64,000 nucleotides of DNA from Cyanophora paradoxa CCMP329 (GCA_004431415.1 QPMI01000513.1:124001-188000), one strand, 5' to 3'. Shown: positions 26,490-62,488, numbered from the stretch's first letter. Program-made: numbers and translations. The notes: generated from the letters alone by a model not told the origin.

Positions 26490-26640
26490 GCTAGACGTTA
26501 ATTTTGTGTACTTTGAATCTAACAGAGAAAACATGTTTAGCTCAATTCTAGACGATATTAATGAGTACAATGAAGCTAACAGAGGAAACACGTTTAGCTC
26601 AATTCTAGACGTTAATTGTGTGTATTTCGAATCTAAAAAA
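26490..26640. repeat. Imperfect ~57-bp tandem repeats in the probable left TIR of element A
   Basis: Recurring CTAGACG..., AACAGAG(A/G)AAACA(T/C)GTTTAGCTCAATTCTAGACG units. Confidence 0.6.
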
Positions 26641-26730
26641 CAAAGAGGTTTCAAGGGTTATGCTACACGTAATTACTATATCATCGGAATCTAATTACAT
26701 ACTCGAGTTCAGGTTCTAGCTAGACGCTAA

Positions 26731-27363: not shown

Positions 27364-27432
27364 TTGTTTTAAATAAGGAACAGAAAAAGTCGACAGACAA
27401 GCTGCCTCGGCTGCGCATTCGCGAAAGTGAAT

Positions 27433-28308: not shown

Positions 28309-28352
28309 CTTTACAACAATATACGTGAAAATATTCTGTAATATAATATCAA

Positions 28353-29581
28353 ATGGCGCAAGCAGGAACTACTCTGAAAGAGCTCCTAACAACCAAAGGA
28401 TCGAACGAGCTTTATCTATCGCCAGGTCTAACTGTCGGTGTTAGCCCAAAGTTTAAGCCTTTCCTTGAGACGATCCGTCCGCGAGGCAACTCATACGGAT
28501 TCGCACAGACTGCTGCTTTCGACCTTCCGCGCAAGCAACTTCTAAATGGCGTCTCCCTATATTTTAAGGTAACAGTCGCTGGTGGAGCTGCCGCTTCGGT
28601 TCTTCCTAATGGTGCTGGTGCATTTATTGAAAACGTACGCTTTGTTCATGGATCTTTCAAAATGGTAATTCCCGGTGATTGGCTTACAGTGAACGCACTG
28701 ATTGATAACAGCGTCGCATCCGCCAAGCTTTTGCTAGCAGCTACGGCTTTGGAAAAGACGCAGCTCTAGAGATTCTCGATGCTAGCCGAGAGTACGTGCT
28801 GAAGATCCCATCACAGCTTTGGGACAATTCATATTTCCCTCTGCTAGCACTTGCGGATATGCCAACCGTCGAGATTGACTTCCGTTCGGCTGGTGTGATT
28901 GGAACTGTTGCTGATGCTATTGCGACTCTAACGGATTGTGCCCTGGTTTGTCAGTTCGTGAATATTCCTAGCGAAGAGGCAGAGTCTATGCTAAAATCTG
29001 CGAACGAGTCTGGCGGTATTAGAATTCCCTTTACTGAAATCATTTCAAAGCGCTCACGCCAGCTTAAGACGGACGACGCAGGAAACGCTGTCGAAATATC
29101 CCTTGCTAACGTTAGCGGCCTTGTGCACGCGATCCTGATGACAGTGCGTAATGCGAATCACCTGGGCACTCGCAATCATAATTCATTTGCCGGTAACGGT
29201 AACGCTTTGAAGATTGATTCGTTTGAGATCATGCACAATAATCGCACTCTCGATATCAGTAATAAGCCAATCTCTGGATTTGTTTCGAGCTGCTATCATA
29301 TCCCAACTCAATATCGCGGAGCAACAACTGGTAATTCAGCCCTTGGTTTTGAAGACGGAAATGTCTATGGTATTGTGCTTTCGAAATCTGGCAAAGACTC
29401 CCTCCACAACGCTGTCCTCGGCTACACAGACTTCTTCAACTCAAGCAGCAGCTACTGCTCCCTCACTGTCACCGGATGTACAAACACCGCACCAGCTGTA
29501 GTCGATTTTCACGTCCTGCGCCACAACGTTCTCGTAATTAATTCATATCAAATGTCGACTCTAAAAGTAAGTAACTTCTAA
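28353..29581 (+). CDS. Major capsid protein (double jelly-roll), element A; frameshift near 28770-28795
   Basis: Two consecutive ORFs (138 + 261 aa) between penton and ATPase; FDLPR, YFPLLAL, similar to the inner-element MCP. Confidence 0.75.
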
Positions 29582-29582
29582 A

Positions 29583-30287
29583 ATGGATATCAAATTGTTT
29601 GATCCAGCAGAAGTAAAACTTCCTAAACGGTTCTTGTTTGTCGGCCCCACCAACTCGGGCAAAAGCACCTACGTAAAACACGTATTAAATGCTGTAGCAA
29701 ATCAGCTAGACGATATTTACGTCTTCAGCACAACGGCATTTACAGAACAGTGGGACGATACCACTCGCAAGAGCAATATTTATGAAGAATGGGATACAGT
29801 TTTGGTTGAAGAACTTTTAGAACGTCAAAAAGAAAGACGACGCAAGAAAGATGATCGAAAAATAGCAATTGTTTTAGATGACTTGCTTGATAATGACCTA
29901 GTAAACGTCCACAGTGACCGATTAATGCAAAAGCTTTTTACTAGCGGAAGACATTACAATATATCGCTCTTTATCACGACACAACGTCTATGTGGCATTA
30001 GTCCGACGATTCGGCGAAATTGCGAATATGTATGCTTTTCGTCGATTCTATCGAATATTAAAGAGTTCGATTGCGTCTTTGCCGAATACAACGCCGGAGC
30101 GAGTCGAGCAGTTTTAATGCGTCTTTTCCTTGAATGGGGTCATTCGTATCAGGTTTTGATATTTGAAGCCGCGACCGTGGACCGCGTCTACTCTGTTGAT
30201 AAATCTTCTGGAGATTTTTCGGCTCTATCAAGCTTTTTACACGCAAGAAAGCGGCCCGGTCGAAAGCCGGCAACCAATCTTGTCTAA
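29583..30287 (+). CDS. A32-like DNA packaging ATPase, element A
   Basis: Walker A GPTNSGKS, Walker B IVLDD, GRHYNISLFITTQ, IRRN. Confidence 0.95.
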   Translation: MDIKLFDPAEVKLPKRFLFVGPTNSGKSTYVKHVLNAVANQLDDIYVFSTTAFTEQWDDTTRKSNIYEEWDTVLVEELLERQKERRRKKDDRKIAIVLDDLLDNDLVNVHSDRLMQKLFTSGRHYNISLFITTQRLCGISPTIRRNCEYVCFSSILSNIKEFDCVFAEYNAGASRAVLMRLFLEWGHSYQVLIFEAATVDRVYSVDKSSGDFSALSSFLHARKRPGRKPATNLV

Positions 30288-30455
30288 GCAACCAACTAGT
30301 ATATTCTGGTTTAGCTGAGGCAATCCACAAATAGCTTGCGCCCTTGTAAATGCCGAAGCTGATGCAGTGGCATGGTGAAAGTTGTGATCTCCCCGGCCAA
30401 CATATTTCTAAATCTTCAATATCCATCAAAAAGATAAAGGGTGTTATTCCTTCAA

Positions 30456-30992
30456 TTAAACCTGTGGAAAGTTCAGACGCAAGAACAGTTTGTCTGCTTC
30501 AGAAGTATTCTCCAAGACATATGCATCACGAGCACGAGCAGCTTCTTCTGCAGTTGAGAAATTGCCAACGTGCTTCAGGCGACCATTTATTTTATAATGC
30601 GCCTGCCATTTACCACACTGCTGATCGAAGCTAACACCTATGAATCCACTCGAGTTATTTCGCCGCCGATTCTGGTTGAGCTGCTGCTGACGAGCAGTTG
30701 CCACACGGAGATTTTCACGTCTGTTATCCAGTTTGTTCAGATTTATATGATCAACTGTCAATCCGTTTTCGAGTTCACCCGAGATATAGTTATGCAAAAA
30801 CACATTCTTTCTATTGATCGTGGTTCGAGCATATCCATAGTTATTTAAACGCCAGCGAAATCCAAGCATACGCTCAGCGTCATCCTGCGACACAAGTGCA
30901 TAGGCAACTACGACTCCATTTCGACCATTCCTACGACCAGTAATTGGAATTAGAGCAACACCTTCAGGGACATCAGGAATTGCGACCTCCAT
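30456..30992 (-). CDS. HNH endonuclease with C-terminal AP2 DNA-binding domain
   Basis: VDHINLNKLDNRRENLR followed by SSGFIGVSF...KWQA...GNFSTAEEAARARD. Confidence 0.9.
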   Translation of the reverse strand: MEVAIPDVPEGVALIPITGRRNGRNGVVVAYALVSQDDAERMLGFRWRLNNYGYARTTINRKNVFLHNYISGELENGLTVDHINLNKLDNRRENLRVATARQQQLNQNRRRNNSSGFIGVSFDQQCGKWQAHYKINGRLKHVGNFSTAEEAARARDAYVLENTSEADKLFLRLNFPQV

Positions 30993-31127
30993 ATTTCTTG
31001 CGCAGCGAGCTGCTTGTCTGCGACTTTTTTGTTACATTTACAGATTGCATTATCTTTAAGCCTAAAAAGTCGCGCTAATTTGTTATAAAAGGATTTATGT
31101 CTCATATTATTGAGATATAAGCGAACA

Positions 31128-31436
31128 ATGAGTTCTGCAGATTATACTGCTGTAAAGCGTGGCCGTGGACGTCCGCCAAAGGTTCGTCTTTTGACAATGG
31201 ATTCATATGAACCAAAGAAGAAGGGTCGTAAGCCAATAGAGGTAACACCGGAGATTTTAGCAGAGCGACGCAGAAAGAATGCTGAACGGAATCGTAAACT
31301 ACGTCATACGAACGAAACATATCGTTTGAAACAGCTTGCCATCACAGCAAAATATCGAGCTGAAAATCCTGATCGTATTCGGGAGTACCACAGAAATGCT
31401 ATTTCGCGTAGATGTCTTGCTAAAGACGTTGCTTAG
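31128..31436 (+). CDS. Small basic AT-hook DNA-binding protein
   Basis: KRGRGRPPK and KKGRKP, Arg/Lys-rich helix; ATG at 31128. Confidence 0.65.
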   Translation: MSSADYTAVKRGRGRPPKVRLLTMDSYEPKKKGRKPIEVTPEILAERRRKNAERNRKLRHTNETYRLKQLAITAKYRAENPDRIREYHRNAISRRCLAKDVA

Positions 31437-32322
31437 CACCAGCTCTAAGCTTTGGCTCTCCTGCAATCTCAAGCTTCTTGAGCTCTCGATCCTTCCGGTT
31501 TTGGCCGCTGTATTTTTTCGTTTCGATCAATCCCTCGCGTCTCAATCGTCTCTGCTGTCGCATTTTCACTTCTTCTTTTTCGATTCGTGTTTGATCAGGG
31601 AGATCACGAGGTTGACGTATTTCAGATGGTTTAACACGCCTAGAAATTTCCACACCTTGCTTTGTAATTAACCTAACGCGGTTCTTATCAGCGCCAGCAA
31701 CTATGTACGTCTCTTTGCTTGGTTTTGCCAGACCCTTCGCAAAAACACTGCTCTTTGGCTCAAGGATCTGCACCTCCGTGCCAGGTTTAGGCATATTTGT
31801 GTTCTCTCGTTCAATATCGTTCTGTCGCTGTCGCACTTGGTGAAGCTGCTCGGCAACCTGTGTATTTTCACGCATCCACGTTGGTGATCGCTCCTCGCCA
31901 AATGCACTGTGGGCTGTCTCATTGTACGCCTTGACAATTGCCGGCAAACGTGAGAGGAAATGCGGTGATCCACGTGCTTCAGTGTCAGCTTGGATAAGTG
32001 CTCGCAATGTCCTAGCGAACCTGTCGATAATTCCAAGTTTGTTACCTTTAGAAATGTGGTCATCTTTGGCAACATCAGTGTGTATTTTCAACGAGTTCTC
32101 TTCGACCATTGCCCGAATCGCAGCTGTGTTAAAACCGTTGTCGGCGGAGAAACCCCAGATCCCTGGCAGTTGCTCAATCATTTTTGGAAGTTGTTTGAAT
32201 GTTTCTATTTTTCGAACGATAGCGAAACGGGTTGCAATTTCTACGGCCGCAAACAGGCGATATCTCCCAATAAATAATACATCAATTTGCCATGCACCAG
32301 GTGGCGCTGTTAGAGTGTACAT
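31420..32322 (-). CDS. RVE-family integrase, element A
   Basis: WQIDVLF, SADNGF, GIIDRFARTLR, YNETAHSA; starts 10 bp after the pPolB stop. Confidence 0.85.
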   Translation of the reverse strand: MYTLTAPPGAWQIDVLFIGRYRLFAAVEIATRFAIVRKIETFKQLPKMIEQLPGIWGFSADNGFNTAAIRAMVEENSLKIHTDVAKDDHISKGNKLGIIDRFARTLRALIQADTEARGSPHFLSRLPAIVKAYNETAHSAFGEERSPTWMRENTQVAEQLHQVRQRQNDIERENTNMPKPGTEVQILEPKSSVFAKGLAKPSKETYIVAGADKNRVRLITKQGVEISRRVKPSEIRQPRDLPDQTRIEKEEVKMRQQRRLRREGLIETKKYSGQNRKDRELKKLEIAGEPKLRAGAKQRL

Positions 32323-32331
32323 CCTTATTAT

Positions 32332-34996
32332 TCAGACACGATTTTTGTAATGCCCAATAGCCCAGGTGTTGATTTTATCATTATCTAGAAAACGCTTCGT
32401 ATCTAGCGGATGCAACGCTTGACGAGAGGTATTTTGCAGATATATTTCATGTCGTTTCGAACGGAAACCGAGAATTCCTTTGATATCATACGATTGTTTT
32501 TCTCCTTTTTTTGGGCAGACACACCGGAGGAATACATCCCTTGTGAGTCTGTTGTAATATGTTTTTTGAATACCTTTGCACACCTGCTTATCTGTGGAAT
32601 CTTCACGCGAATAATAGTAAGATTTCGGCCGGTTAGCGATCCACTCTGTCATTTGTAGACCATGAAGCTCATCCTTGAATAATCCCGGAGTTTTCCCCAT
32701 CGATCGTAGAGCTCGAACCTCATCGGCTGTCATGCCATCAAAGAATCGATGTGTCTCTGGGTAGTCGCTAACATCCAGCTCATGCTTGATTGAGCGTAAA
32801 TCAGCATAGATATCTTTGGTGCGAACCTCGATGATGAGACTGTCAGTATCAGTTCCAAGTAGCTTAAGCCGATGACCCCAAAGCGGTTTGAGCACCTGAT
32901 AGTAGAAGCGATACATGTGCAGCTTGGACAATTCGAGAATGACAAATCCACAGTAAATTGGTTTATTTAAATTATACTCACTTTTTCGCTTGGAAACGAA
33001 TACAAGGTTCTCTTCGTACATCACCACCTGCTTCAACCGATTTGGTTCGCTGTTTATCTTTGCCAAACGATCACCAGATGTAACAAGCTCGGAGAAACAG
33101 TGTTTTCTCACGTTCTCCATCGTCTTTCCGAATACACTGTTATTCATTAACTTGAAGAGATCCTGTTTGTATTTGTGATCAGCACGCTTGCGTTCACTTG
33201 TATTAAGATCGATGAAATCGTTCAGCCACGCACTTTGTTCGTACGATTAAACACGGTGGATGTTGGTTACAATCATTCCCAGTGTAGTATAAAGCTTAAG
33301 CAAACGCCCATCAACAACATAATTCTTCTTTGGCAACAGGTTTGGAACCAATTTTGGGGTTCTTTCGACTGAAGTAAGCTTTTCGTTGTTAATCATATCC
33401 TGCTGTTGTTTCGATAGATGATCTATGGACACGCACATTCGTTCAGGAGCTAGTGGATAATCTGAGAAATCATCGTGGAGATGGTCAGGCATGTACATAT
33501 CAACTTCTAGAGCATAGCCACGAGGACCATCAGCGTCAAGGTTTTCAACGAACTGCATAGCATCAACATCTTGATCGAGTTTTTCCCAGCGGAAACCTCC
33601 AGTGGGGAGTTTTTGTTTCATAGCAACGCCATACAGATTATTCGCATCAAGGTACATCAGCCACGATTCTTTGCCTGTTTTTTCGTAGTTTTGCACACAT
33701 TCAATCTGGGTTGCTGATTCATCAGCATGCGTATATTTTCCAAATTTCTTTAAAATTGTCGCTGCTTTTGCTGCTTTCTTTTTATTCTTTGCAATCACTC
33801 TTGAACTCATGTCTTTTACGTGTTTCAGGAACTCGTTATCAGCTTTAGCGTATCTCTTTGATATCATGCTGATGCCACCCCTAATTCCTGATTCTATGAA
33901 TCTATACATATCTTGTTGTCCCTCGTGAAAAAGCTCAAGCTTAATTCCTGTGCGTTTAAGAGCAGCTTGCCAAGCGAATCCTGGTGATGATATGAAATAG
34001 CTTGGATCTAATCCATACGTTTCCATGCATGTATCACGATAGTTTTCAAATACATCGGCAAGTAACGAAATGTCAGTATTCATATATTCCATAGTATAGT
34101 CTGATATCGTTCTACATGCAAGCTTTCTCCAAACGATCTGAGCATGTGCGTACTCGTCTTTTGAGCATTTCTTTTGTTTTAGTTCGTTCTTAAAGTATCG
34201 ACGTACAGGTAGTTCTGTTTCTTGAAAACGTTGCCAGCTTGATATATAGCTATATGGATATATCCCTTGCTTGTCATCAACTCGAATCTAGTATCATCCG
34301 GATACATTGTGCGCGTGATCTTCTTCTTCTCCGCTGGGACCGCTTTCGCTAGATCATCCAAACTAGCATTCAAATGTTGCATCGAATCACGAAGTACATA
34401 AATTCCATACTTAAACTGTGATATCTTCTCGCTATTCTGAAAGGTTTGATCAAATTTGATCGAAAGGAGACTCTGCGGGCGGAGCCGGCGTTCGAGCCCC
34501 TTCTTAACCTTCTTTTTCTGCTCTGGGGTCATCTCACGTCCACCGTACTTGCTTTGAAACTCACTTTCGACATGTGCTTGAAACTCAGCCCAAGCTGCTG
34601 AACGGCGGTTTTTGCCAGATGCTATTGCTCTCACGAACAGGTGAAAGTCAAATCCACGACCATTATGAAAGAATATAGGAACAGCAGCAGATTTTGCACG
34701 GCGGCGATTGCAAGCACGACAGGCTGCTCCAATGTATTTACCTGTATCATGACAGTGATCACGGTGCTTGTCTTTGATATCTTTGAACGTGTTTTTGCAC
34801 ATATAACAGTCTGTCGTTGTTTGAAAACACTGTTCCTCTTCCGGATTCATCTGGATTGGTACACTTGCTTTGAGAAGTTCTCTAAATTGTGGTTCCATTT
34901 CGTCAAGCCATTTTACGAACTTATCAGCACAGTCTTCATTCTCGGAACCCATACATTTAAATGAAAACTGTTCGCCTTTCGAAGATACAACCAGAC
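32332..34996 (-). pseudogene. Protein-primed DNA polymerase B of element A, 3' part (frameshifted, cut off by element B)
   Basis: RDHCHDTG (EndoVII-like), ExoII FHNGRGFD, ExoIII YMNTD, YLDANNLYG, MNNSVFGK, TDTDS across three ORFs. Confidence 0.92.
34991..34996 (+). repeat. Left 6-bp target-site duplication CCAGAC
   Basis: Identical hexamer at 62483-62488 immediately outside the TIRs. Confidence 0.95.
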
Positions 34997-36104
34997 ACAC
35001 ATAGTAAAATGCGGAGTTTTAACCCTCGGCTTATCTTAATTGATTTTGTTGATATATCTCGTATATTCTATTTCAATCAATCGATAATCTGTGTATATCT
35101 TATCGAATATTCATTTATTTCGTTTATTTTGTATTCTTTTCGATATTTTATCGTAAATTTCTCTTATTTTCCGATTAGTCTTACTGAGTCTATCGATAAT
35201 CTGTATATATTTCCGAATAATATAACTGAATCTCAATTAGATCTTGCCTCTGGTTAAAACTCCGCATTTTACTATGTGTGATTGGTCTAAAAGTTAATTG
35301 ATTTAATCGATATTATATTCATGTACTTTCTCGATTAAAATTTAATTAAATTTAATTCATTTAATCGGAAATATATCGCTAAACTCGATTAAGATCCATA
35401 AATGATTCATTTGTTTATATTAACAAATCGATCTCTTATTGAATTCAATCGTAATTATACATGAAACTTATATGATTTTATCATTGTTTTGTTGAGTCTA
35501 AGGGGGGACCCTTAGAAAATTGGGTGTGACAGGTGTGACAGGTGTGACAGGTCAATCCCAAGGAAAGTCCTAGTGAGAAATTGATTTTTAAAATCCACGG
35601 GATAAACCTGTCACACCTGTCACACAAACCATATTCAGTAAGGACCTCATATATTGTGAAAATCTCAGTGTTAGTTGTTGTTAAATCTTTCAGGCAGCAT
35701 TTATTTGTCAGGCATTAAATCTATCGATTTTCATAAAGTATTTTATTTTGGCTAAGTCATTGTTTGGATTAACAATGAAATTTCAATTTTATAAAAGTTT
35801 TCTAAAAAGGTGCCTGACAATGCCTGACATACTATATTAGTGCCTGACAACTATATTATAGTGCCTGACAAACCATATATGGTAATACTATATGTTATAA
35901 CCTACTTTCTCAGTGTTAGTTGGTGTAGTTGATTCAAATAATGCATTTTATACTCTGATTCATTGTTATTTCCTGTGAAATTTGAGTCAACTCAACCCAC
36001 TTAGTCAACCCTTGCATTGAATTCGTAACAAAATCCATATACTATCGATTAATATGAGTCAACCTTGAGTCCACTTTAATAATAGGGGAATCTTGGGAGA
36101 TGCT
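34997..36104 (+). repeat. Left terminal inverted repeat of element B
   Basis: Reverse complement of 61379-62482, with single-base indels in homopolymer runs; begins ACACATAGTAAAATGCGGAG. Confidence 0.95.
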
Positions 36105-36120
36105 TATTAGATGCTATTAA

Positions 36121-37506
36121 TTAGCTAGTTTTGGTCCTTTCTCTTAGTGTTCTTTGAGGTTTAGGGGCTGTATATGACTCCTTAGTAGTCTGAAAGTCAT
36201 TATACCATCTTTGGCTATTCACTTCTGAAAGTTTCTGTGTTCCTGCTATAGTGAGCTTTTTGAGTTCCCTGTTAACTTTGCCAGCCTTCTCCTTTCTAGC
36301 CTCTATCAAAGGCTTATCTGGGACTTCATTAGCAGCTTCTATGCCCTCTCTCCTTATAGAAGCATCAACCCTAGCTTCCTCTTTGGCTTGCTCTAAGGCA
36401 TCCACTGTAGGGGCTTCCAGATACTCAACTGCATTCACAGGCAACAGCTCATGGAAAGCAAACCTGTTATCTATGATCTCTCCAGTGGGACTCTTTAGCT
36501 TAAACTTAAAGCCTTCTCTACTATCAACAGTGTAAACCATCCTAGACCAATTGTTACCCTGTTTAGCAAATGGGTTCTTCTCTACTTTCACTCTAACAAA
36601 CATGCCAGGCTGCATGGTATCAAGATAAGCTATTGATTTCTTGAATCTTTCATCTTCTAATCCTACTATATACCTATAATGCTCCTCTGTAGTTTCACCT
36701 GGCTTCATCTTAGTAGCTGAGTGAACTGTATTATTGTAATTAAACTCAATATCACCCAACACATCAAAGAATCTAGCTGTGTTATTAGCTATGCAATAGT
36801 TTGTGATCAGTCTCTTAATCTGCTTGTTAAAGGCTTCAATTCGACCTTGGCTTCTATGGTCAGCAGTTCCACTCACTTGGTGTTCTATGAATTTACTAGA
36901 TAAATACTCCTGGAATATTCGATTTTGGAATTCACTCCCAGCATCTGATTGAACTTTTACTATGGGTCTTGCCACTCTCATTTCAAGCTGTTTAAATGCA
37001 GCTAATGTAGTGAGAGCTGATTTATCCCTTATAGGTATGATATACCCAGTTCTCAGTGTTGATTCCATTGCAGTCATAAAGGTATCATAGCCATTGTTTT
37101 GTTTCTTATAAGCTGGGAAAAAGAGCAAATCAATCACATAGGTATCAAGGGGTTGCCTAATTGGGACCATGGGATCTCTCTTCCTAGATATAGCAGGTGC
37201 ATTGATCTGAACTACCTCTTGTTTTTTATAGAACTCTTGCAACTGCTTATAGGATTCATCTGGTAACTCAGCCCTCATAGCTTGAAGCCCTTTGTAACCA
37301 GTTCTCACATCATAGAATCTCTTGGCAATCTTGCTTGTTTCTTTCACTGCAATAGCAACTGGAATCTCTACTGGGACAAGCTCTTTCATTTCAGACTTTT
37401 TTACAATTCGAGATTCCCCCTTTTCCTCCTTTGGAACTGTGATGGGCAGTAGGTTTCCTTGCAGTTGCTCAGTGGTTCTCCTAACTATTCTTCCAGTTGC
37501 TGGCAT
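36121..37506 (-). CDS. RVE-family integrase, element B
   Basis: DDE triad YVIDLL, QSDAGSEF, GRIEAFNKQIK; YNNTVHSATKMKP. Confidence 0.95.
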   Translation of the reverse strand: MPATGRIVRRTTEQLQGNLLPITVPKEEKGESRIVKKSEMKELVPVEIPVAIAVKETSKIAKRFYDVRTGYKGLQAMRAELPDESYKQLQEFYKKQEVVQINAPAISRKRDPMVPIRQPLDTYVIDLLFFPAYKKQNNGYDTFMTAMESTLRTGYIIPIRDKSALTTLAAFKQLEMRVARPIVKVQSDAGSEFQNRIFQEYLSSKFIEHQVSGTADHRSQGRIEAFNKQIKRLITNYCIANNTARFFDVLGDIEFNYNNTVHSATKMKPGETTEEHYRYIVGLEDERFKKSIAYLDTMQPGMFVRVKVEKNPFAKQGNNWSRMVYTVDSREGFKFKLKSPTGEIIDNRFAFHELLPVNAVEYLEAPTVDALEQAKEEARVDASIRREGIEAANEVPDKPLIEARKEKAGKVNRELKKLTIAGTQKLSEVNSQRWYNDFQTTKESYTAPKPQRTLRERTKTS

Positions 37507-37509
37507 CTC

Positions 37510-40500
37510 TTAATTAAAAGGAACAGAATTAATACCATCTGGTAAGATGTATCTCTTTGCATCAAAGCAGTTTAGGGCAACCCTTCTACTCACAGTGTCT
37601 ATTATTGTGTGATCTGCCCTTCTTTTCTGCTTTGCAGTCACAGTCTTGCTGATACCTGCAAATAAACACTGTTTAAAATCATTAAATTGGAGTTCCTCAG
37701 TTGAAGTCCCAGAGAGCTTACTCCTCTCAATCTCAGCAGTTCTGAAACTGTAAACTTTTGCTCTCAGACCCACATACTCCAATATAGCAGAGCCAGGCAT
37801 TTCATTTTTGTATTTACCTGGGGTCATTCTGGAATCACCTCCAAGGTCTAATGCATAGGATATATTCTCTATATCTTTTTGTAGGGTCTTAGATTCGATA
37901 TATAGACAAAAGGAGTCAGTATCATGGAATAGTAACTTTGCTTTTGTCCATTGGGACCTTACAGTATCATAGAAGAACTTGTAGTTATGCAGTTTGGCTG
38001 CATCCAGAACATAAGCCCCAATAGCAACTGGCTTATCTAGCTTCACATGCTTTGTGTAAAACTCAAAGGCAACTGCTTTTTCGTTTATGGGACTTGTTGA
38101 TTTCACCAATGGGGAGGCTGCATATTTCATAAACAGTTTCTCACTGTTTGCAATCTTAACCACAGATCTACCTCTGCAAGATTCAATGCATTTCCCATAG
38201 ATTGAGTTATTCATGAGTTTATAGAAATCAGCCTCGAATTTATTCACTGCTTTCCTTCTCATCTCAGTATTCAGCTCAATGTAGGGTTTCATTACAGGAG
38301 CCACAGTAAATGATAGGACCCTGTGAACCTTCTTTAGTTTCACCCCTTTGTCCAACAGATACTGTAGAAGAGGCTCAGAAATCACATAGTTGGTCACAGA
38401 ACCAAAGGTTGCAGTTAGCTTAGGGGTCTTATCAAGCTCTTCTCCTGAGAGATCTAATAGGCTCTTTTGATATTGTGATAATTCTGCATATTCTACTATT
38501 TTCTTGTTAATAATTAGGGGGAAATCACTGTGGTCTAGATATAGCCTAATTGGGTAATCCAGATCAACTTCCAGGAAACTGGATCTGTTATCTTGTGGGT
38601 TGAATTCGGTCTCCCATCTAAAATCACCAACTGGAATTGGCTGACTCAAACAGTAGCCATACAAGTTGTTAGCATCAAACAGCATTATATGGGAGTTCTC
38701 ACCATCAGCCTCAGCATACCTACAAGGCATTGTTGCAAAGCCACCCCTGATTCCCCTCTCAACAAATTCGTATTGCTCTACATCACTGATGAGTTCTATT
38801 TTTGCCTCGGTGGTCCTAAGCATAGCATCCCAAGATAGCCCAGGTGCAGATACATAATGAACTGGGTCAAGTCCATATACTGAGTGTGAAAGCCTTCTGA
38901 AAGCCTGGAATTTGCTCATTAACTCATCTACATCAGCAGCCCCAAAGTCCATAAAATTACTTGCATCAATGAACTTGTAAAGACCCCATTGCAATGAAAG
39001 GTATTGATCAAAGTTTTTCGAAAGGATTTCGATTCGCTTTTTATCACCCATGCCTGCTATTTTTCTGAAAATGAATGTCCCACAGTCATCCATTTGGTCA
39101 ACAACAACTGCAACTTTGGTTTGCTTTGAGATTCTCCTATGGAGATTGCAGTTTCTGCATGCAGGAGCAATGTAATGACCTGTGTGGTGGTCATGATCTC
39201 TGCATTTGAAGTTCTCCTTGGTGAACCTCTCACTGCAAAGGTAACAGTGTTTAGTAGCCCTGTAAACAGCCTTTTGCTCATCTGTGAGTTCATTCATGGG
39301 AATATTGGTAAACAGAAAATCGATCAGCTCTCTTGCTTTGGACTCCAAGCATTCAAAGAGACCTCCCATTGGATCCTGCCCCTCAAATCGAAAATCTTGA
39401 ACATCTTCCCCAGTGACTACTCTAAGGTTCACTGCTGAGACTTCCCTCTTGGATTTCGATGCATCAATGGGGATGCTTCTATGTTCAATCTTGCAGTAAA
39501 CCACAACAGGAAGCCACACAGTTTTCCTGAGGTTTTTCAGTCCAAACTCTATTGTGGTGTCAGGCTTAGGGGTGATTCCCTTTGAGAGTCTCCAATCAAT
39601 GCATCTGTTTGAGTCCACATGAGCAGTCAGTTTAGCCTCAGACCTGAATCGAGATAAGCATGTATCACAGTAGTGTAACTTTTGATCCTTGGTTTTATCA
39701 AGGGCAACTCTGAGAAGTCTTGAAAGGGACATGATAGTAATATAGTGACCATTCCCTTCATCATCATGAATGAGCATTAGATTAATCTTTTGCTTTCTGC
39801 CTGGGTTGCTGGATTGATGTAGGGGATATATAACATCTCCATCCATTCCAAATATGTTTATGCTGATGCCTGCATTTTGAGATTCGAATTTATCAATGAT
39901 TTCAGCATCACAAGGAACAGGGAATGGGATATTGTCGAAATTGAGAGCCAAAGGATTGTATGTGGTTGGTGAGTATTTCCATTTGCGATATTGTGTAAGC
40001 TCACTTCTCTTGTGGGAATTTACATCTTTCCTATGGATCCATGCCAAAATGGCATTTTCAAAGCAAGAATCATCAATATTTCGAATATTCACTGTGGCTC
40101 TCTTGGCTGCAATTGATTCTGGTGTTTTAACATAGCAGCCACCAGTTGGGGCATAACTCATAATAGCAACTCTGAGCATTTCGATTCTCTCCAATCGATA
40201 GCTATCAACAACATTCATCTGCTCCTGACACATTTGGGCTGCTTTATTCAGCTCAGTTCGAATATTTCTCGATTTGGTTAATACAAAATAATCGCTGTAA
40301 ATGTATTTCGATATCCAAACCTGTGGATTGCTGACTTTTACGAACTTGCAGATAAACGATAAGCGAACTTTGATTGCCCTGAATTGATCCAGACTATCTC
40401 TTAAACGTTTTGGTAGAGAGGTTGCAATTCTATCTAAATATTCAATCACATCAACAACAACTTCCCTTCTGGCTCTGTATGTGAGCCAGCGATATAATTC

Positions 40501-40755
40501 ATTCATAGCTGTTCCATCTTCCGCCTCTGGTTCTATTTGCCTCAGGCGATCCAGTTCATCAAGAGTTTCAACTTTATCATAGAGGTTATTGGCTTTTCTG
40601 GTTAATTTTGCTAAAGTGGGTCTGCCCCTTGAAATAAATCCGATTTCCCGGTCATATTCAGCCTCTGTGATTTCATGGGCTGCATACAGTGTTCCCAGTA
40701 ATCCCATGAGTTCCCATTTCTTCTCTCTAATGAGTCTGTTGCTAATTCGGGGCAT
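37510..40755 (-). CDS. Protein-primed DNA polymerase B, element B (intact ORF, degenerate exonuclease)
   Basis: FDANNLYG, KLMNNSIYGK, HDTDS, GLRAKVYS; RDHDHHTG EndoVII-like motif. Confidence 0.95.
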   Translation of the reverse strand: MPRISNRLIREKKWELMGLLGTLYAAHEITEAEYDREIGFISRGRPTLAKLTRKANNLYDKVETLDELDRLRQIEPEAEDGTAMNELYRWLTYRARREVVVDVIEYLDRIATSLPKRLRDSLDQFRAIKVRLSFICKFVKVSNPQVWISKYIYSDYFVLTKSRNIRTELNKAAQMCQEQMNVVDSYRLERIEMLRVAIMSYAPTGGCYVKTPESIAAKRATVNIRNIDDSCFENAILAWIHRKDVNSHKRSELTQYRKWKYSPTTYNPLALNFDNIPFPVPCDAEIIDKFESQNAGISINIFGMDGDVIYPLHQSSNPGRKQKINLMLIHDDEGNGHYITIMSLSRLLRVALDKTKDQKLHYCDTCLSRFRSEAKLTAHVDSNRCIDWRLSKGITPKPDTTIEFGLKNLRKTVWLPVVVYCKIEHRSIPIDASKSKREVSAVNLRVVTGEDVQDFRFEGQDPMGGLFECLESKARELIDFLFTNIPMNELTDEQKAVYRATKHCYLCSERFTKENFKCRDHDHHTGHYIAPACRNCNLHRRISKQTKVAVVVDQMDDCGTFIFRKIAGMGDKKRIEILSKNFDQYLSLQWGLYKFIDASNFMDFGAADVDELMSKFQAFRRLSHSVYGLDPVHYVSAPGLSWDAMLRTTEAKIELISDVEQYEFVERGIRGGFATMPCRYAEADGENSHIMLFDANNLYGYCLSQPIPVGDFRWETEFNPQDNRSSFLEVDLDYPIRLYLDHSDFPLIINKKIVEYAELSQYQKSLLDLSGEELDKTPKLTATFGSVTNYVISEPLLQYLLDKGVKLKKVHRVLSFTVAPVMKPYIELNTEMRRKAVNKFEADFYKLMNNSIYGKCIESCRGRSVVKIANSEKLFMKYAASPLVKSTSPINEKAVAFEFYTKHVKLDKPVAIGAYVLDAAKLHNYKFFYDTVRSQWTKAKLLFHDTDSFCLYIESKTLQKDIENISYALDLGGDSRMTPGKYKNEMPGSAILEYVGLRAKVYSFRTAEIERSKLSGTSTEELQFNDFKQCLFAGISKTVTAKQKRRADHTIIDTVSRRVALNCFDAKRYILPDGINSVPFN

Positions 40756-40867
40756 AGTTCCTAACTTGTTCCTACTAAAAGGGGAGGTTTTAAATGGGGA
40801 TATTCCGAACGCGAAAATACTTAAAGGAATTTTTATATTGTATATATATAGAAGCCAAATAGCAAGA

Positions 40868-41185
40868 ATGAATCCGGACGGTCAAAGAACGCTTAGTATT
40901 TCAGCCATCATGAGAAGTATTAAAGAAAGAAATGAAACCTGTGAAAACTCAGAATATAAACGAATTCTATGCAGTTTATGTAAATGTGATGAGACTAGCT
41001 ATGATCAGTTTGTATGTGATCAATGCTTCAAGACAGTCTGTATTGGATGCATGAAACAGCAAGAGGAAATAGTCGGGAATACAAAATGCCCATTCTGTAG
41101 AAACACATTACAGTATCCAGAGTTCACCTTGTACAACATTCTGGACTACAATGCATGTGATGTTGAAACAATTACATTTGGCTGA
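40868..41185 (+). CDS. RING-finger protein
   Basis: CSLC...CDQC...CIGC...CPFCR; ATG at 40868 follows a TTAAAG/TATA motif. Confidence 0.75.
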   Translation: MNPDGQRTLSISAIMRSIKERNETCENSEYKRILCSLCKCDETSYDQFVCDQCFKTVCIGCMKQQEEIVGNTKCPFCRNTLQYPEFTLYNILDYNACDVETITFG

Positions 41186-41236
41186 GCAACAAAAAATGAT
41201 TTAAAGAAAATATCTTCTATATAGATATATGTAAAA

Positions 41237-41887
41237 ATGTCATGCCCAATCTGTTTCAAAACTATTCAAAGGAATACAATCATTGAGCTTGCTTGTGAGC
41301 ATTTCTTTTGTGAAGCCTGCATTATAAAGTATATATATAAGGTTCATGACTCTAATGAGGTATCCCTGCTCTACTGCTGCACACAGAAAGCTTTCAGACA
41401 GTTTAAAGGGTACCCAGAAATGATGCTTGCAGAGAGCAACTATTGCATATCATGTCCTCTTTGCAGGTGTGAATATTCATTTCTTTCATACATTGCAAGG
41501 ATTTCACGGACAAATCCTCTTGAACAACTCATCTGCAAGGTGTGGTTTAGAGATGAGTTCTATGATCTTGGTTTATGTCATTATTTGACAGATGAAAATC
41601 AGTTCTATAACTATATTCCGTTGTGTGATAGGCTCCATTGGGAAAAATGTGAAAGTGTAAAAACAAATTTTGCGAATGATGTCATCAAAATGTTCAGTGA
41701 TCGCAAACACAATGAATACCACATGTACAAATGTGATTGTAAGAAGCCAATCTGCCCAAAGGTCTTTCCTGTGCCATCAGCAACATGTGATTGCAAACAA
41801 CATGCAAGCCCTGAGGAGTTTGAAGAAATGTTGCTTACATATTGTTCAAAGAAATATCCAGAAACCACAAAACAAAAAATGATTTAA
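41237..41887 (+). CDS. RING-finger (C3HC4) Cys-rich protein
   Basis: CPIC...CEHFFCEAC...CPLCR. Confidence 0.85.
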   Translation: MSCPICFKTIQRNTIIELACEHFFCEACIIKYIYKVHDSNEVSLLYCCTQKAFRQFKGYPEMMLAESNYCISCPLCRCEYSFLSYIARISRTNPLEQLICKVWFRDEFYDLGLCHYLTDENQFYNYIPLCDRLHWEKCESVKTNFANDVIKMFSDRKHNEYHMYKCDCKKPICPKVFPVPSATCDCKQHASPEEFEEMLLTYCSKKYPETTKQKMI

Positions 41888-41924
41888 AGAATTCTCTATA
41901 TATATTAAGAGAGACAGAGGAAAA

Positions 41925-42179
41925 ATGCCACTCAGTGAAGCCCAGAAGAGAGCTATGAAGAGGTACCAGCAAACTGAAAAAGGTAAGGCTCAAATCAAAA
42001 AGTTTAACGAAAAAATAGCCACACAGCTTAGAGATCTATATCAAACCGATGATACTTATAGAGCCATGAAAATAGCCAGTTCATGTCAGCGAAAGTATGC
42101 AGCCAATGCAGTCTGCTTTGTAAAATATTTATATGATGTCCCTTACTCAAATCGAGGGAGAAAATTGAAACATGTCTAA
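41925..42179 (+). CDS. Small basic hypothetical protein
   Basis: 84-aa ORF MPLSEAQKRAMKRYQ, preceded by the shared upstream motif. Confidence 0.65.
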   Translation: MPLSEAQKRAMKRYQQTEKGKAQIKKFNEKIATQLRDLYQTDDTYRAMKIASSCQRKYAANAVCFVKYLYDVPYSNRGRKLKHV

Positions 42180-42391
42180 ATTATTTTTCCCAGCATATTA
42201 CTAGGCTGGGGATATGCTGTTTATTCGCTGAAATACCCATTCATCCTTTTTGTATCTAAACCACTCGATATATCATGTGGATAAATTTCGTAGGGATACT
42301 TTCTCGATTTCCAACAAAAAATGATTGGGGGACCCAAAACTACTTAAAGAAAAATCTTCTATATATATAAAAGGGACCCCGATCGCTGAAA

Positions 42392-44719
42392 ATGAACGCC
42401 AAACAGACTAAATCGCTCAAATCGCTCGCTAACTGGCTCAGATCTGATGAGGATCTAGCCAAAAACATGATTATCCCAGTGAAACCTGACAGCAAAGACC
42501 CTGTTTTCAAGCATAAGGGAGGTGCTTGGTCCTGGGAAAAGTATGAGGAAGCGCTGGCAACTAATCAGTATGTATCTTGGGGCATTCTGCTCTCAGACAA
42601 CATGATGGTTATTGACTTTGATGATGAGGAGGACTTTGAGAAATTCCGGGATATGTTTCCTGATGACTTTGATGCCAATCAGCCCATGGCAAAAACTAAA
42701 AAAGGCTATCATGTCTACTTTAAACGACCTGAGGAGTTCAATAAACTCAAAATTACCGATAAGGCTCCTGGCTTTAAAGGCTTTGAGAAGGTTGACCTGA
42801 AAACAATCACTGGAACTGGAACTTCTGGACTGATCAATGTGTGTCCCAGTGTGAACAAGGCTTGGGTAATCTCCCCATGGGATGATACCTGTGATTTCAA
42901 TGAGCCTACTGATGACTTCAAAAAGTGGATAATAGATAACTACATCTATAAGAGTGAGTATACTGCTAATGCTACCTCACATGATGAACTGGAAAACAAT
43001 ATTATCAAAGAGCTGGTGGATATGGGATTTATGCATCCCAATATAATCTCTAAAACTGAACTTGGCTTTAACTTTGATGCTGCTAACAAGGGACTCAATT
43101 GCCCATGCTGCAATGGTTCACATGAATCGAATAACTGGTATGTTATGAAAGCTAAAGGAGATGATAACAAATACATTGTGTCAAGCTACAGTGGAAATTG
43201 CAAAAAACGATTCATCTGCATTGGAATGCAATCTGATATCTTCAATCTTATAGATAAATCCGCTGGTTCTGGTGGCGCTCATTATGATGTGAGTTTAGTA
43301 TGCAAAGAGGTTCTTAAACATACATGGAGATACTCCAAAAAGTCATGGTTCAAACTCAATACTGATACTGGGATTTGGGAGCATGATGACACAAACCTAA
43401 AGATTTACCTAGATATAAGCCGTCTTGTTGTCCCCCAATACCTTGGAAGGGCTGTGCATTATAGTCAAAGAGCTTTAAAGGATGAGGAAAACAAAGCAGC
43501 TTTCGAAGAAAGATCCAAAACATTGATGACCATTGCCAAAAATCTTAAACAATCAGGATTTCGCAAATCCCTTCTGACTGACTTGGTCCCACTGCTGAAT
43601 GATGATGAATTCTTTGAGAAGATTGACACAGTTCCATATGTGATTGGATTCGAAAATGGTGTATTTGATCTGACCACTATGACTTTCAGAAAGGGTAAAC
43701 TGGAAGATATGGTGAGCAAGACTGTGGGTTATGACTATACTGAAAATGTAGACCCCAAGAAAATAGAGCATCTCAATCAGATTTATAAAGAGATTGTGGA
43801 TGATCCAGCAGAGCGAAAGTATCTTCTGGCATCCATTGCAATTGCCCTTAGTGGATCAACTAAATCCCAGAAGTTCTATATGTGGACTGGTGCTGGTGCT
43901 AATGGTAAATCACTTGTTCAGGAATACTGCAAACAGATATCTGGTCGTTATTACAGCCCTCTCGAAATATCCTATTGGACTAAGCCTAAAAAGAACTCAT
44001 CAGAGGCTACTCCTGAACTTGCCAAACTCCTTGGAAAGCGACTTGTATTCAGTAATGAGGCTGAAGATGGTGATAAACTGCAGATCTCCAAGATTAAGGA
44101 GGTCACAGGTGGAAATGAAATGACTGTGAGAGCCTTGTTCAAAGACCCAGTTATCCTTACCCCAATGTTTCAGGTCTACATTACAACTAATGACAATTTG
44201 ACTATAAATAAACCAGACTTTGCAATTCAAAGAAGACTTTCCTATCAGAGATTCAATAATATATTCAGAGAGAAGCCAGAAGCTGGTCAGAAGAAAGCTG
44301 ATCCAACTCTGTTCACACTTCTTCACAATGATGATGAGTATAAGATGGCTCACATGAAGATATTACTGGATATGTGGAAGAACAAAGAGGTTGAAGAGAT
44401 CTTAAGAAGTCCCCCTCAATCGATTATTGAACAGGGAATTAACTTTATAGCTGAAAATGACAAGATTGGTGAATGGCTTCGAGATAATTTCGAGGTTACA
44501 CATAATGCTAACGACTTTGTTTCCAGTGATATCATTTACAAATCATACAAAAGTGTTGATGATAAAGTTGAATGTGTATCTGTTATGAAAAGAGTAAGGG
44601 AGATCTTCAATGTAAAATCAGAAAGAAAACGAGTTAATGGAATTCTAGCCAGAGGATATATTGGGATTCGAAAGATAACAAGGGTTCAGGAAGACAATGA
44701 AGATGATGCCGAATATTAA
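42392..44719 (+). CDS. Primase-polymerase (Prim-Pol) fused to a D5-like SF3 helicase
   Basis: GILL...VIDFD and TKKGYHVYF primpol motifs; CPCC..H zinc motif; IGFENGVFDL; Walker A GAGANGKS; AIQRRL. Confidence 0.92.
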   Translation: MNAKQTKSLKSLANWLRSDEDLAKNMIIPVKPDSKDPVFKHKGGAWSWEKYEEALATNQYVSWGILLSDNMMVIDFDDEEDFEKFRDMFPDDFDANQPMAKTKKGYHVYFKRPEEFNKLKITDKAPGFKGFEKVDLKTITGTGTSGLINVCPSVNKAWVISPWDDTCDFNEPTDDFKKWIIDNYIYKSEYTANATSHDELENNIIKELVDMGFMHPNIISKTELGFNFDAANKGLNCPCCNGSHESNNWYVMKAKGDDNKYIVSSYSGNCKKRFICIGMQSDIFNLIDKSAGSGGAHYDVSLVCKEVLKHTWRYSKKSWFKLNTDTGIWEHDDTNLKIYLDISRLVVPQYLGRAVHYSQRALKDEENKAAFEERSKTLMTIAKNLKQSGFRKSLLTDLVPLLNDDEFFEKIDTVPYVIGFENGVFDLTTMTFRKGKLEDMVSKTVGYDYTENVDPKKIEHLNQIYKEIVDDPAERKYLLASIAIALSGSTKSQKFYMWTGAGANGKSLVQEYCKQISGRYYSPLEISYWTKPKKNSSEATPELAKLLGKRLVFSNEAEDGDKLQISKIKEVTGGNEMTVRALFKDPVILTPMFQVYITTNDNLTINKPDFAIQRRLSYQRFNNIFREKPEAGQKKADPTLFTLLHNDDEYKMAHMKILLDMWKNKEVEEILRSPPQSIIEQGINFIAENDKIGEWLRDNFEVTHNANDFVSSDIIYKSYKSVDDKVECVSVMKRVREIFNVKSERKRVNGILARGYIGIRKITRVQEDNEDDAEY

Positions 44720-44760
44720 ACAAAACGATTGATGATTGAGATTTACATATATTTTTATAG

Positions 44761-44880
44761 CCTTACTGAAAATGGTTTGTGTGACAGGTGTGACAGGTCC
44801 ATCCCAAGGAAAGCCCTGGTGAAAAGTTGATCTTCACAATCGATGGGATAGACCTGTCACACCTGTCACACCTGTCACAC
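44761..44880. repeat. Internal copy of the TIR iteron-like palindrome (GTGTGACAG)n-spacer-(CTGTCACAC)n
   Basis: 2+3 nonamers here; 3+2 at 35524-35625 and 2+3 at 61857-61957; spacers homologous. Confidence 0.9.
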
Positions 44881-44948
44881 CTATCGGAAAAGACCAAAAT
44901 TTGACAAGAATACTTAAGGCTTACTTGATTGTGTATAGTGAAGACAAA

Positions 44949-46630: not shown

Positions 46631-47326
46631 TCAGTTCATCTTCTTTCTTTTTGGCTTTCTGTGGAAGCGAGGAAATGGGAAGTCTTTGACAAGCTCAGCT
46701 TTATCTACAAAGTATTTAACTGAGTAGCCAGCAGAGGACCAAACGATATACTGATAGGAGTGGACATATTCTTCAAACATTTTGTAAAAGTCCTCCTTGT
46801 TTCGCATTATATTGTATTCTTCCTCTATGGCTTCAAGTTCTTTGCGATTAGCAGCACTCAGGAAAACAGCATAATCAGAATTAACTCGAATAGTGGAAGA
46901 GACTTTTCTGAGTTTCTGTGTAATGCAGATAATGGATATTTTCGAATGTCTGCCCCTACTGTACAGAGATGACACCACCTTGTCTCTTGTTAAATCAATT
47001 ATCTCATTATCAATTAAATCATCTAAAACAACACACATGTGGTTCACAGGTTCACCTTTTTCGATTTTCTCCTGCCTTTCATCCAAAAGCTTTGAAATGT
47101 AACCAGCATCCCATTTACCAAGTTCTACTGTTGCAACCTCTCTCCAGAAATGATTAAAGCTGGTCCCACTCACAACTAGGACAACATCAATAACTTTGGC
47201 ATCATGTAATTGCTTTAACCAATACTTTACACATTCGCTTTTTCCCGTACAACTTTTGCCTATAAAAATGGCTCTGAAAACACCTTTTATCATTTCAGAA
47301 ACATTAAACTCTTCTAAATCTTGCAT
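46631..47326 (-). CDS. A32-like DNA packaging ATPase, element B
   Basis: GKSCTGKS, VVLDD, GRHSKISIICITQ, IRVN. Confidence 0.95.
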   Translation of the reverse strand: MQDLEEFNVSEMIKGVFRAIFIGKSCTGKSECVKYWLKQLHDAKVIDVVLVVSGTSFNHFWREVATVELGKWDAGYISKLLDERQEKIEKGEPVNHMCVVLDDLIDNEIIDLTRDKVVSSLYSRGRHSKISIICITQKLRKVSSTIRVNSDYAVFLSAANRKELEAIEEEYNIMRNKEDFYKMFEEYVHSYQYIVWSSAGYSVKYFVDKAELVKDFPFPRFHRKPKRKKMN

Positions 47327-47385: not shown

Positions 47386-48752
47386 CTATAAATTGATTCT
47401 ACGAACACCTGAACCGTCTATAATGAGGAAACTATGCATTAAAGCGCGAACTTGAACATTGATTGTCTTATCTGTGGGCATGTAGAGTGTGAGGAATGAA
47501 GATGAGGAATTTGTCAGGTCAACAAATCCACTTTGAGCAATATTTCGAATCGCCTTCTCTCCATCAATGCAGAAACTTAAACCTGAAAGGACATATTTAT
47601 CTGCAACCTTATCCATGTTAGAGCATTTGAAGGCATCAGCAATTAGCTCAGCTCCTTTGAGTAGAGAAATTGGCTCAGTGGCATAAAGTCGTTGTCCATT
47701 AATTTCAACAGTGAAAGTAATATCTTTGGAGTTGGCATAGGTCTTAAGAACACTGTGGGAGCCATTGGATTTGTCAACAGTCTCATAATCACGAACTGAA
47801 ACAAGCAGAGCATAGACAAGACCTGAGATTTGAGAGAGGTTAATTCGATTGGGCTGGGCATTGCCCTTGGCAGGGAAAGCAATGGCATCTACAAATCCAA
47901 TATCAAGGGAGGGAATAGCCATGCCAGTAGTCTTTACTTTTTCAATTACAGTAGCGAAAAGCTCATCAGAAACATTAATAGCATGCATGTAAAGGCGAGG
48001 AGAAGTAATTGAAATAGCAGGGGTTGTTGCACCAAGACTGAAAGTGGTGATGTTTTGACCAACATGGGCAAGTGTAGCATTAGCAGTATCACCAAGACCA
48101 TCATCTTCTGTCTTATCAGCAACTGTCCCACCAACAACAGGGAGAGAGCGACCACCATAGGAAGTTTCAACATAACCCTTTCCAGCATCCTTAAACCAAA
48201 CAGTAACAACCATTTCACCAGATAAAGCACCAAGGGGAAGGTAGTGATTTAGCCAAGGCACAGGGATTTCAACGAAAATGAGCCACCAAGTCGGTTGGTT
48301 CCATGAGCAGGGATTCCATGAACCATGCCCATTGAGCGTTTCTTTTTAGCTAGTTGATCCTCCGAATAATAGACCAGGGGGAAATGAGCAAGGAAATCAG
48401 AAGGAATGTGGTAGGTGTAAGATCCATAGGTAATTTCAAGTCGCTGAACTAAAGCACCAACTGGGCGAGTGTATCCATTGCGAACTAGATCTTCACCAGC
48501 AAAAGTGATTTCTGGTAGGTCGAAAGCAAGTTCGAGTTTTCCACAGAAATTGTAGCGAGGTAGCTTGAAGGAAATGCGATTTCCAACATTATTCTCAAAA
48601 GTATTGCTGGGATTCACAACAACTAGAACTGGCTTAGACTTGGATTCGAGACCAAGCATAAGGGAGTTATCCAGGAAAAAGGCTTTCGCCTCTTCTGGGG
48701 TTGTTAGGGCTTCTTTCAGCGAAAGTCTTTGAAGAGTGGAAGTGATATCCAT
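47386..48752 (-). CDS. Major capsid protein, element B; frameshift near 48255
   Basis: Two overlapping ORFs; ISFKLPR, YLPLGAL, INLSQISGLVYALLVSVR parallels ISLANVSGLVHAILMTVR of the element A MCP; lies between penton and ATPase. Confidence 0.8.
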
Positions 48753-62482: not shown

Positions 62483-62488
62483 CCAGAC
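62483..62488 (+). repeat. Right 6-bp target-site duplication CCAGAC
   Basis: Matches 34991-34996. Confidence 0.95.

Follow-up and report, generated by a model that had tools for sequence, protein, structure and literature searches.

The closest described counterparts of the replication enzyme examined here are the protein-primed family B DNA polymerases (pPolBs) of Maverick/Polinton elements that carry an endonuclease VII (EndoVII) insert, those of mavirus and EMALE virophages, and the Tlr1-like pPolB-S1H enzymes of polinton-like viruses (PLVs) and transpovirons. We analyzed a 64,000-nucleotide stretch of Cyanophora paradoxa CCMP329 DNA (GCA_004431415.1 QPMI01000513.1:124001-188000; hereafter the window) that holds two nested PLVs, and focus on the pPolB of the inner virus, element B, which we call polymerase B; that of the outer virus, element A, is polymerase A. 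Exonuclease loss has already been described for mavirus pPolB and pPolB-S1H (PMC11161782; PMC12721341; PMC13215967), and section 10 of PMC11161782 reports that in mavirus and PLVs this loss is accompanied by helicase gain, offering compensation for fidelity as the reason.

The mavirus and EMALE enzymes resemble the predicted polymerase B in being protein-primed, in having no working exonuclease and in occurring with an rve integrase and a superfamily 3 (SF3) helicase on a separate gene, as set out in PMC11161782 and PMC13215967. Mavirus pPolB has lost the greater part of its exonuclease domain, whereas polymerase B keeps a scaffold of ~200 aa that carries the EndoVII insert and is predicted to fold, which places it outside the mavirus type; unlike in mavirus, its helicase carries a PrimPol domain and its best sequence matches are Polinton-type. 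pPolB-S1H likewise combines exonuclease loss with retained terminal protein (TP) and vOTU domains and a helicase partner (PMC11161782), but it has no exonuclease domain and carries an SF1 helicase fused at its C terminus, whereas polymerase B has the full polymerase module, an unfused SF3 helicase and a protein end after the thumb. Maverick/Polinton pPolBs with an EndoVII insert share with polymerase B the order TP–vOTU–exonuclease (EndoVII)–polymerase, motifs A, B and C, an rve integrase, terminal inverted repeats (TIRs) and a 6-bp duplication, but in them the ExoII and ExoIII aspartates are near-universal, whereas polymerase B lacks the ExoI and ExoII aspartates and ~94 aa. We take these EndoVII-bearing enzymes to be those labelled 'group 2 / beta'. 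The polymerase of phage phi29 (PDB 2pyj, 2ex3, 1xhx) has the fold predicted for residues 386-1081 of polymerase B but works with a separate terminal protein; it proofreads and needs no helicase (PMC6351526). Like element B, two-replicase PLVs and virophages and terminal-palindrome elements combine a pPolB with a primase-helicase, bracketing internal repeats and terminal palindromes (10.64898/2026.10.13.758929; 10.64898/2026.07.28.741278), and the main texts of both sources, which do not contain the word 'exonuclease', leave the exonuclease state of these pPolBs undescribed.

In the main texts of the open literature we found no description of an EndoVII-bearing Polinton-type pPolB with a dead, internally deleted exonuclease, and an earlier mention may exist; the available sections of PMC10120064 make no mention of an exonuclease. 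Polymerase B probably represents a lineage-fixed early stage, itself probably convergent, of the known pattern of exonuclease loss and helicase gain, with the scaffold still present.

Retained and lost parts of polymerase B

Missing from polymerase B are the ExoI and ExoII aspartates, KG-x-YPY and half of the ExoIII helix, while its polymerase motifs, vOTU dyad and TP fold are kept and variants among its sister copies are mostly synonymous. Its features are as follows.

37510-40755, minus strand: pPolB gene of element B, 1081 aa in a single open frame, comprising a TP-like domain, a vOTU, what is left of the exonuclease together with its EndoVII insert, and the polymerase (PF03175, PF02945)
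37708-37719, minus strand: thumb K-L-S-G, S1015 in place of the lysine of the conserved KG
37912-37923, minus strand: motif C DTDS (D945/D947)
38191-38220, minus strand: motif B KLMNNSIYGK (K846)
38656-38676, minus strand: motif A DANNLYG (D694, Y699)
38920-38967, minus strand: deletion junction, DASNFMDFGAADVDEL, ~94 aa absent, F604 and D608 at the ExoIII Tyr and Asp positions
39073-39105, minus strand: ExoII remnant VVDQMDDCGTF, Q554 for Asn and G559 for Asp
39142-39279, minus strand: EndoVII-like zinc insert; all nine exonuclease-dead proteins described below retain its D520-H521 and C536-N537
39484-39501, minus strand: ExoI remnant VYCKIE, K422 for the first Asp, E424 kept
39745-40065, minus strand: vOTU protease Cys231 and His337, kept; C231 invariant in 62 rows
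40198-40215, minus strand: loop N181-Y186, at which the TP-like domain is predicted to prime, with S185 as candidate linking residue (helix 165-180, strand 186-200)

As a first-pass annotation of the window had noted, the gene is an uninterrupted 1081-aa open reading frame (ORF) with DANNLYG, KLMNNSIYGK and DTDS in place; together with a KVY motif (K1000) it contains pPolB motifs A, B, C and KxY. The annotation's comparison with polymerase A is borne out for the motifs themselves: GYADSE in A reads VYCKIE in B with the first Asp lost, FFHNGRGFDFH reads VVDQMDDCGTF, and the motifs of A (GYADSE at 62582, FFHNGRGFDFH at 34673, YMNTDISLL at 34086) lie where it placed them. Polymerase A is nevertheless not an intact comparator, being split by element B and carrying several frame changes and an internal stop. 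The annotated collapse of the stretch before ExoIII is also seen, but its size, put at 80-90 aa, is better given as ~94 aa from the span between the DS strand and F-x-x-F-R, which measures 19 aa in polymerase B, a median of 113 in 268 other homologues and 338 nt (~113 aa, across a frameshift) in polymerase A. The missing block comprises the KG-x-YPY motif, presumably the counterpart of phi29 Kx2h, and the first half of the ExoIII helix. The supposed loss of the acidic residues applies to the ExoI and ExoII aspartates but not to all of them, as E424 is kept and D608 is acidic by position, leaving acids at two of four carboxylate positions. Because the four exonuclease carboxylates are reported to be needed (PMC3511435), polymerase B would lack proofreading, and without proofreading it would be expected to make more errors and may act as a mutator.

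An AlphaFold2 model of residues 386-1081, built on 66 rows most of which have the full domain, has a mean predicted local distance difference test score of 94, junction included, and places D608 directly before a shortened helix 609-627. It matches phi29 polymerase best (Foldseek E 6.9e-19; VIA Z 21.1 over 482 residues, root-mean-square deviation 3.0, 15% identity), the next family reaching Z 10.7. A PDB search by sequence gave no significant match. The model contains the beta-rich segment after motif B and predicts a phi29-type fold with TPR1 and TPR2 insertions in which palm, fingers, TPR2 region and thumb are all present. For residues 1-400 the model shows a TP-like domain, whose best viral matches are of Polinton type, with adintovirus, MELD virus and mavirus polymerases as top folds; followed by a vOTU with its Cys and His, this gives the TP-vOTU-Exo-Pol order of Polinton-type enzymes.

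Further sequences show that the deletion is neither an artefact of assembly nor the decay of one dead copy. The Logan protein P0001 is 46% identical to polymerase B over its full length and has the same 19-residue span; its motifs VIYAQIK, HDLATYG and IEPRN contain none of the four exonuclease carboxylates, with K and N at the E424 and D608 positions. In sequencing data, where sister copies were read as short Logan contigs, 14 runs contain 63-67% of the words sampled from the replication region. Contigs from three of the four runs aligned to 38750-39650 (X1, X14 and X20) bridge the junction without an insert, with at least 31 letters on each side and represent at least two haplotypes, with no gap, joint or loose end listed there; the fourth run, X15, has no coverage of the junction, and one run may be the window's own source. 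Among the best-supported 40 of 49 sister-copy differences in this interval, 32 are synonymous; over residues 415-615 the count is 23 synonymous to 7 replacement, against an expected synonymous share of 0.20-0.26 (P ≤ 1.3e-8; omega ~0.1). A wider comparison lists 12 polymerase-gene differences, 11 of them synonymous (2 common to both lists; 523 further rows beyond). This synonymous excess indicates that the polymerase and its exonuclease remnant are under purifying selection. The frameshifts in polymerase A and in the element B capsid and lipase genes within the window would suit an assembly error or decay, but the identical length of the deletion in the 46%-identical P0001, which has a different source, bridging contigs in three runs of different studies, the open frame and the synonymous excess refute that explanation, which we regard as practically without a chance of being correct. 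Taken at the level of sequence, these observations uphold the earlier proposal of a proofreading-dead enzyme that is probably still a polymerase: no alternative acids appear to complete the exonuclease site, and no sister copy with a normal exonuclease was seen.

Loose ends of contigs at 39080-39162 in X1, X14 and X15 show that the same organism also has a sister family of B-type polymerases that has diverged further. None of the runs with matching pieces is recorded as RNA, and the X15 and X20 pieces, which may be RNA, were not counted as expression. Contig depth is ~3x higher over the pPolB than over the PrimPol-helicase, a ratio that gives no copy number, does not rank genes and was not used as evidence.

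Exonuclease-dead relatives and their origins

The closest homologues of polymerase B are ordinary Maverick/Polinton polymerases of ~30-35% identity. A profile search of 1.84 billion representatives, in which the best 150 of 26,813 matches were examined, added P0202 and P0238 as exonuclease-dead proteins, and a search from P0238 added P0277-P0281, which alone had a short span among the 84 of 112 further proteins where it could be measured. Spans below 80 aa occur in 5 of 270 aligned proteins (polymerase B, P0001, P0202, P0238 and P0143), the last of which was set aside because HNLKGYD and RKG are retained there and its gene model seems to skip segments. Across the 270 rows the ExoII Asp and the ExoIII Asp are each present in 266. 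Nine proteins including polymerase B therefore lack the same block: lineage I comprises polymerase B and P0001, with the 19-residue span, and lineage II comprises P0202, P0238 and P0277-P0281, with a span of 31-37 residues in P0238 and P0202, similarly short spans in the others, and HG for HN. Elsewhere, P0216 has a full-length exonuclease domain in which the ExoII Asn and Asp are replaced by Gly and Ala, possibly an earlier stage of inactivation. A metagenome scan covering 46 of 64 parts found the deletion in none of the 85 loci listed, many of them too fragmentary to read, and a further profile search gave one weak match and missed even P0001, making it uninformative.

Two features outside the exonuclease were compared across these proteins. 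The thumb lysine before Gly is absent from all nine exonuclease-dead proteins but found in 209 of 212 other homologues; of the three that lack it, P0227 and P0243 are exonuclease-intact with the same A-A-G thumb as lineage II. In phi29 polymerase the thumb coordinates the polymerase and exonuclease sites (PMC1475753). The vOTU Cys/His dyad is retained in all nine. For the TP domain, PMC11161782 places the priming Ser or Tyr in a loop (section 6) and describes Gly or Pro near all linking residues. The corresponding loop, which reads D-S-Y in polymerase B and P0001, falls 4 aa short of the usual GSGW loop and in polymerase B has no Gly, and the PLAPE motif is altered in both (PLIINK and PMILTK), while lineage II retains the GSGW and PE motifs.

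Two independent origins of the deletion are favoured over a single one, though not proven, by trees that contain no mavirus sequence. Built from the polymerase columns alone, a mixture tree of 33 rows recovered two origins in 200 of 200 bootstrap trees, with the joined tree 21.5 log units worse (approximately unbiased (AU) test p 0.054); however, a FastTree of 125 rows joined all nine proteins (0.92), and for a quick 40-row tree the AU test preferred the joined topology (p 0.87). Branches to the exonuclease-dead lineages are long, but some exonuclease-intact rows are equally long and the homologues were chosen as best matches, so branch length was not used as proof of a mutator.

A possible helicase partner and competing explanations

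Three features of element B bear on how it may be replicated.

42392-44719, plus strand: 775-aa fusion of a PrimPol with an SF3 (D5-like) helicase whose Walker A reads GAGANGKS (PF09250, PF08706, PF19263)
44737-44881: diverged internal copy of the TIR repeat block TGTGACAGG/CCTGTCACA, 3′ of the PrimPol-helicase gene; counterpart at 35523-35667
62200-62482, plus strand: terminal fold-back with a 28-bp perfect stem that includes the last base and ~227 nt between the arms; mirrored in the left TIR at 34997-35279

The PrimPol-SF3 helicase gene lies 1.6 kb from the pPolB gene, so that helicase and exonuclease-dead pPolB co-occur in one element. Helicase and primase families were found in none of 67 of 78 ORFs of at least 230 aa, representing 15 of 16 loci of at least 9 kb, all with ExoII-intact pPolBs. 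The genomic context of the other eight exonuclease-dead proteins was not found in viral-contig scans with P0001, P0202, P0238 and alignments of them, which returned one exonuclease-intact locus or nothing; a genome-contig scan for exonuclease-dead relatives returned nothing, and a scan for the PrimPol-helicase gave no locus. Separately, one pPolB-rve element encodes a Tet/JBP-like dioxygenase (L001:5892-6767).

On balance we lean towards the explanation that polymerase B lost its proofreading residues and ~94 aa as a lineage-fixed trait and is likely a working, error-prone replicase that relies on the SF3 helicase. In such a scheme the TP domain, with Ser185 as candidate, would prime at the TIR ends and the vOTU would then cut the TP domain off. 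Because the phi29 exonuclease domain forms the template tunnel together with TPR2, and phi29 mutants in the exonuclease metal ligands are described as defective in strand displacement (PMC6351526), the remnant may have been kept as a tunnel wall with TPR2 and as the carrier of the EndoVII insert, while an enzyme without these ligands would displace strands weakly and need a helicase. The PrimPol-SF3 helicase would unwind and may re-prime, and the thumb lysine, if it served primer transfer to the editing site, could have become dispensable. That a helicase might compensate for weak unwinding is our own suggestion, beyond the fidelity argument of PMC11161782; a division of labour with the PrimPol-helicase, as raised in the first-pass annotation, is plausible and has its precedent in section 10 of that paper.

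Several points weigh against helicase dependence and complete loss of editing. In yeast Pol epsilon and delta, exonuclease loss reportedly favours strand displacement, the opposite of phi29. The helicase link comes from one locus (n = 1), the exonuclease-intact loci used as controls are fragments of 9-16 kb, and 67 of the 78 candidate ORFs entered the comparison. Polymerase B keeps E424, and its F604-x-x-x-D608 aligns with the ExoIII Y-x-x-x-D. Initiation on a terminal protein is not secure, as the predicted loop is shortened and lacks Gly and Pro and the element ends can fold back, and terminal palindromes are described mainly with non-pPolB replicases and hairpin priming (10.64898/2026.07.28.741278, Halocafeteria preprint). 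The replication genes of element B are bracketed by the internal repeat, and two-replicase elements have been described as mosaic or transient (10.64898/2026.10.13.758929 section 13; 10.64898/2026.07.28.741278; 10.64898/2026.06.19.733378).

These last observations suit an exonuclease-dead pPolB that is self-sufficient, displacing strands through TPR2 at low fidelity, with the PrimPol-SF3 protein a separately acquired second replicase in a passing state. We give this a real but minority chance: the same three sources document replicase swapping and two-replicase genomes, the predicted TPR2 region is intact, and strand displacement by Entamoeba EhDNApolB2 has been ascribed to TPR2 alone (PMC3511435), but it fits the pattern of exonuclease loss and helicase gain, and the 0 of 15 partial exonuclease-intact loci with a helicase, less well, and the internal repeat encloses the pPolB and PrimPol-helicase jointly rather than separating them. 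Specialization for the ends, with polymerase B initiating by TP priming or fold-back extension, or filling ends for integration, while the PrimPol-SF3 protein carries out bulk synthesis, would draw on the perfect 28-bp fold-back, the hairpin-primed palindromes cited above, the shortened TP loop of polymerase B and P0001 and their altered PLAPE motif. It appears unlikely, however, given a predicted whole polymerase fold with TPR2 region and thumb and a synonymous excess along the whole gene; lineage II, exonuclease-dead with the GSGW and PE motifs kept, also indicates that exonuclease loss needs no change in priming. The narrower proposal in the earlier annotation, an enzyme for end filling or protein priming only, is disfavoured by the alignment of palm, fingers, TPR2 and thumb to phi29 polymerase over 482 residues.

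More elaborate, and rather improbable, is a scheme in which repeated loss of the proofreading subdomain and the thumb lysine left the retained EndoVII active site to edit or resolve ends, correcting by endonucleolytic cuts in place of 3′-5′ excision, and the helicase-primase and fold-back ends form a new priming route. T4 endonuclease VII cuts mismatches and branches, and editing might have moved to the EndoVII-like insert, cutting mismatched or branched DNA, such that polymerase B is not a strong mutator. We think this highly improbable: the insert's D-H and C-N residues persist in 9 of 9 exonuclease-dead proteins and purifying selection acts on the remnant that bears the insert, but exonuclease-intact relatives have the insert just as well, so that no new role is needed to explain its retention, and the branches to the exonuclease-dead lineages are long. 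Residual exonuclease activity through E424, D608 and the nearby D553, D556 and D557 would take its support from the alignment of E424 and F604-x-x-x-D608 with the ExoI Glu and ExoIII. This has scarcely any likelihood when Lys stands at the ExoI Asp, Gly stands at the ExoII Asp and KG-x-YPY is deleted, when P0001 keeps none of these acids except an Asp at the first ExoII position, and when a single ExoIII Asp-to-Ala change made a Polinton-derived polymerase exonuclease-deficient, as reported in PMC3511435.

The link between exonuclease loss and helicase gain was proposed from end states, mavirus and pPolB-S1H, and the nine proteins show an early step, probably taken twice. The proposal becomes testable on near-matched exonuclease-dead and exonuclease-intact pairs that are ~30-35% identical and share one architecture. 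The same proteins define a natural minimal deletion of the pPolB exonuclease domain, with a thumb lysine that co-varies with proofreading. Should polymerase B truly be a mutator, a family of endogenous viruses present in multiple copies would replicate ~27 kb unedited, which bears on the speed of its diversification.

Nested elements in the window

GC content is ~74% in the first 25.5 kb of the window, which is eukaryotic DNA, versus ~40% in the remainder, and this low-GC part consists of the two PLVs, with element B inserted directly after the ExoI motif of the element A pPolB. A 6-bp duplication, CCAGAC, flanks element B at 34991-34996 and 62483-62488, and TIRs, target-site duplication and integrase support its assignment as a PLV.

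34997-62482: element B, endogenous PLV of 27.5 kb inserted in the element A pPolB gene (TIRs, duplication, GC content)
34997-36088: left TIR, ~1.1 kb, right copy at 61397-62482; complementarity to the right end is 100% over its first 510 nt
36121-37506, minus strand: rve-type integrase (PF00665 match scoring under the curated cut-off; 6-bp duplication flanking the element)
41237-41887, plus strand: RING-finger protein (Pfam), with a second Cys-rich ORF at 40706-41185
46631-47326, minus strand: A32-like packaging ATPase (Pfam)
47386-48752, minus strand: likely major capsid protein in two ORFs (Capsid_NCLDV feature clusters at 0.96 with a low recognition score; 24% identity to the element A counterpart)
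62488-63945, minus strand: element A pPolB, 5′ part, frameshifted, with vOTU and ExoI GYADSE at 62582
32332-34990, minus strand: element A pPolB, 3′ part, with ExoII, ExoIII and motifs A-C, one frameshift and one internal stop

Element A (26000-34996 and 62483-64000), whose right end lies beyond the window, also carries an HNH-AP2 endonuclease at 30456-30992, an ATPase, a split capsid gene and an integrase-like ORF at 31420-32322. Although interrupted and frameshifted, its pPolB has intact exonuclease motifs.

The terminal fold-back stem of element B has a z of -10.9, equalled in 0 of 200 shuffles. It is a candidate for a self-priming end, and the element has a pPolB as well. The internal TGTGACAGG/CCTGTCACA repeat separates the integrase, pPolB and PrimPol-helicase genes from the capsid genes, and the copy at 44737-44881 could be an origin, a binding site or the boundary of a remnant module. 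Contig joints 35561-44844 and 44795-35518 have short sides within the repeat and were not trusted.

Among 34 ORFs scanned, with small ORFs only partly covered, no Pfam match to a Ulp1-like cysteine protease was found. The minor capsid protein of element B is represented only by a DUF5901 match (E 0.0065); other genes of the element specify a patatin lipase and an S74 chaperone domain. Several of its structural genes between 47386 and 58379 (capsid, patatin/F5-F8 lipase and fibre) are broken into at least two ORFs, and ~10 tandem 36-nt units lie within the fibre-gene region at 55366-55863.

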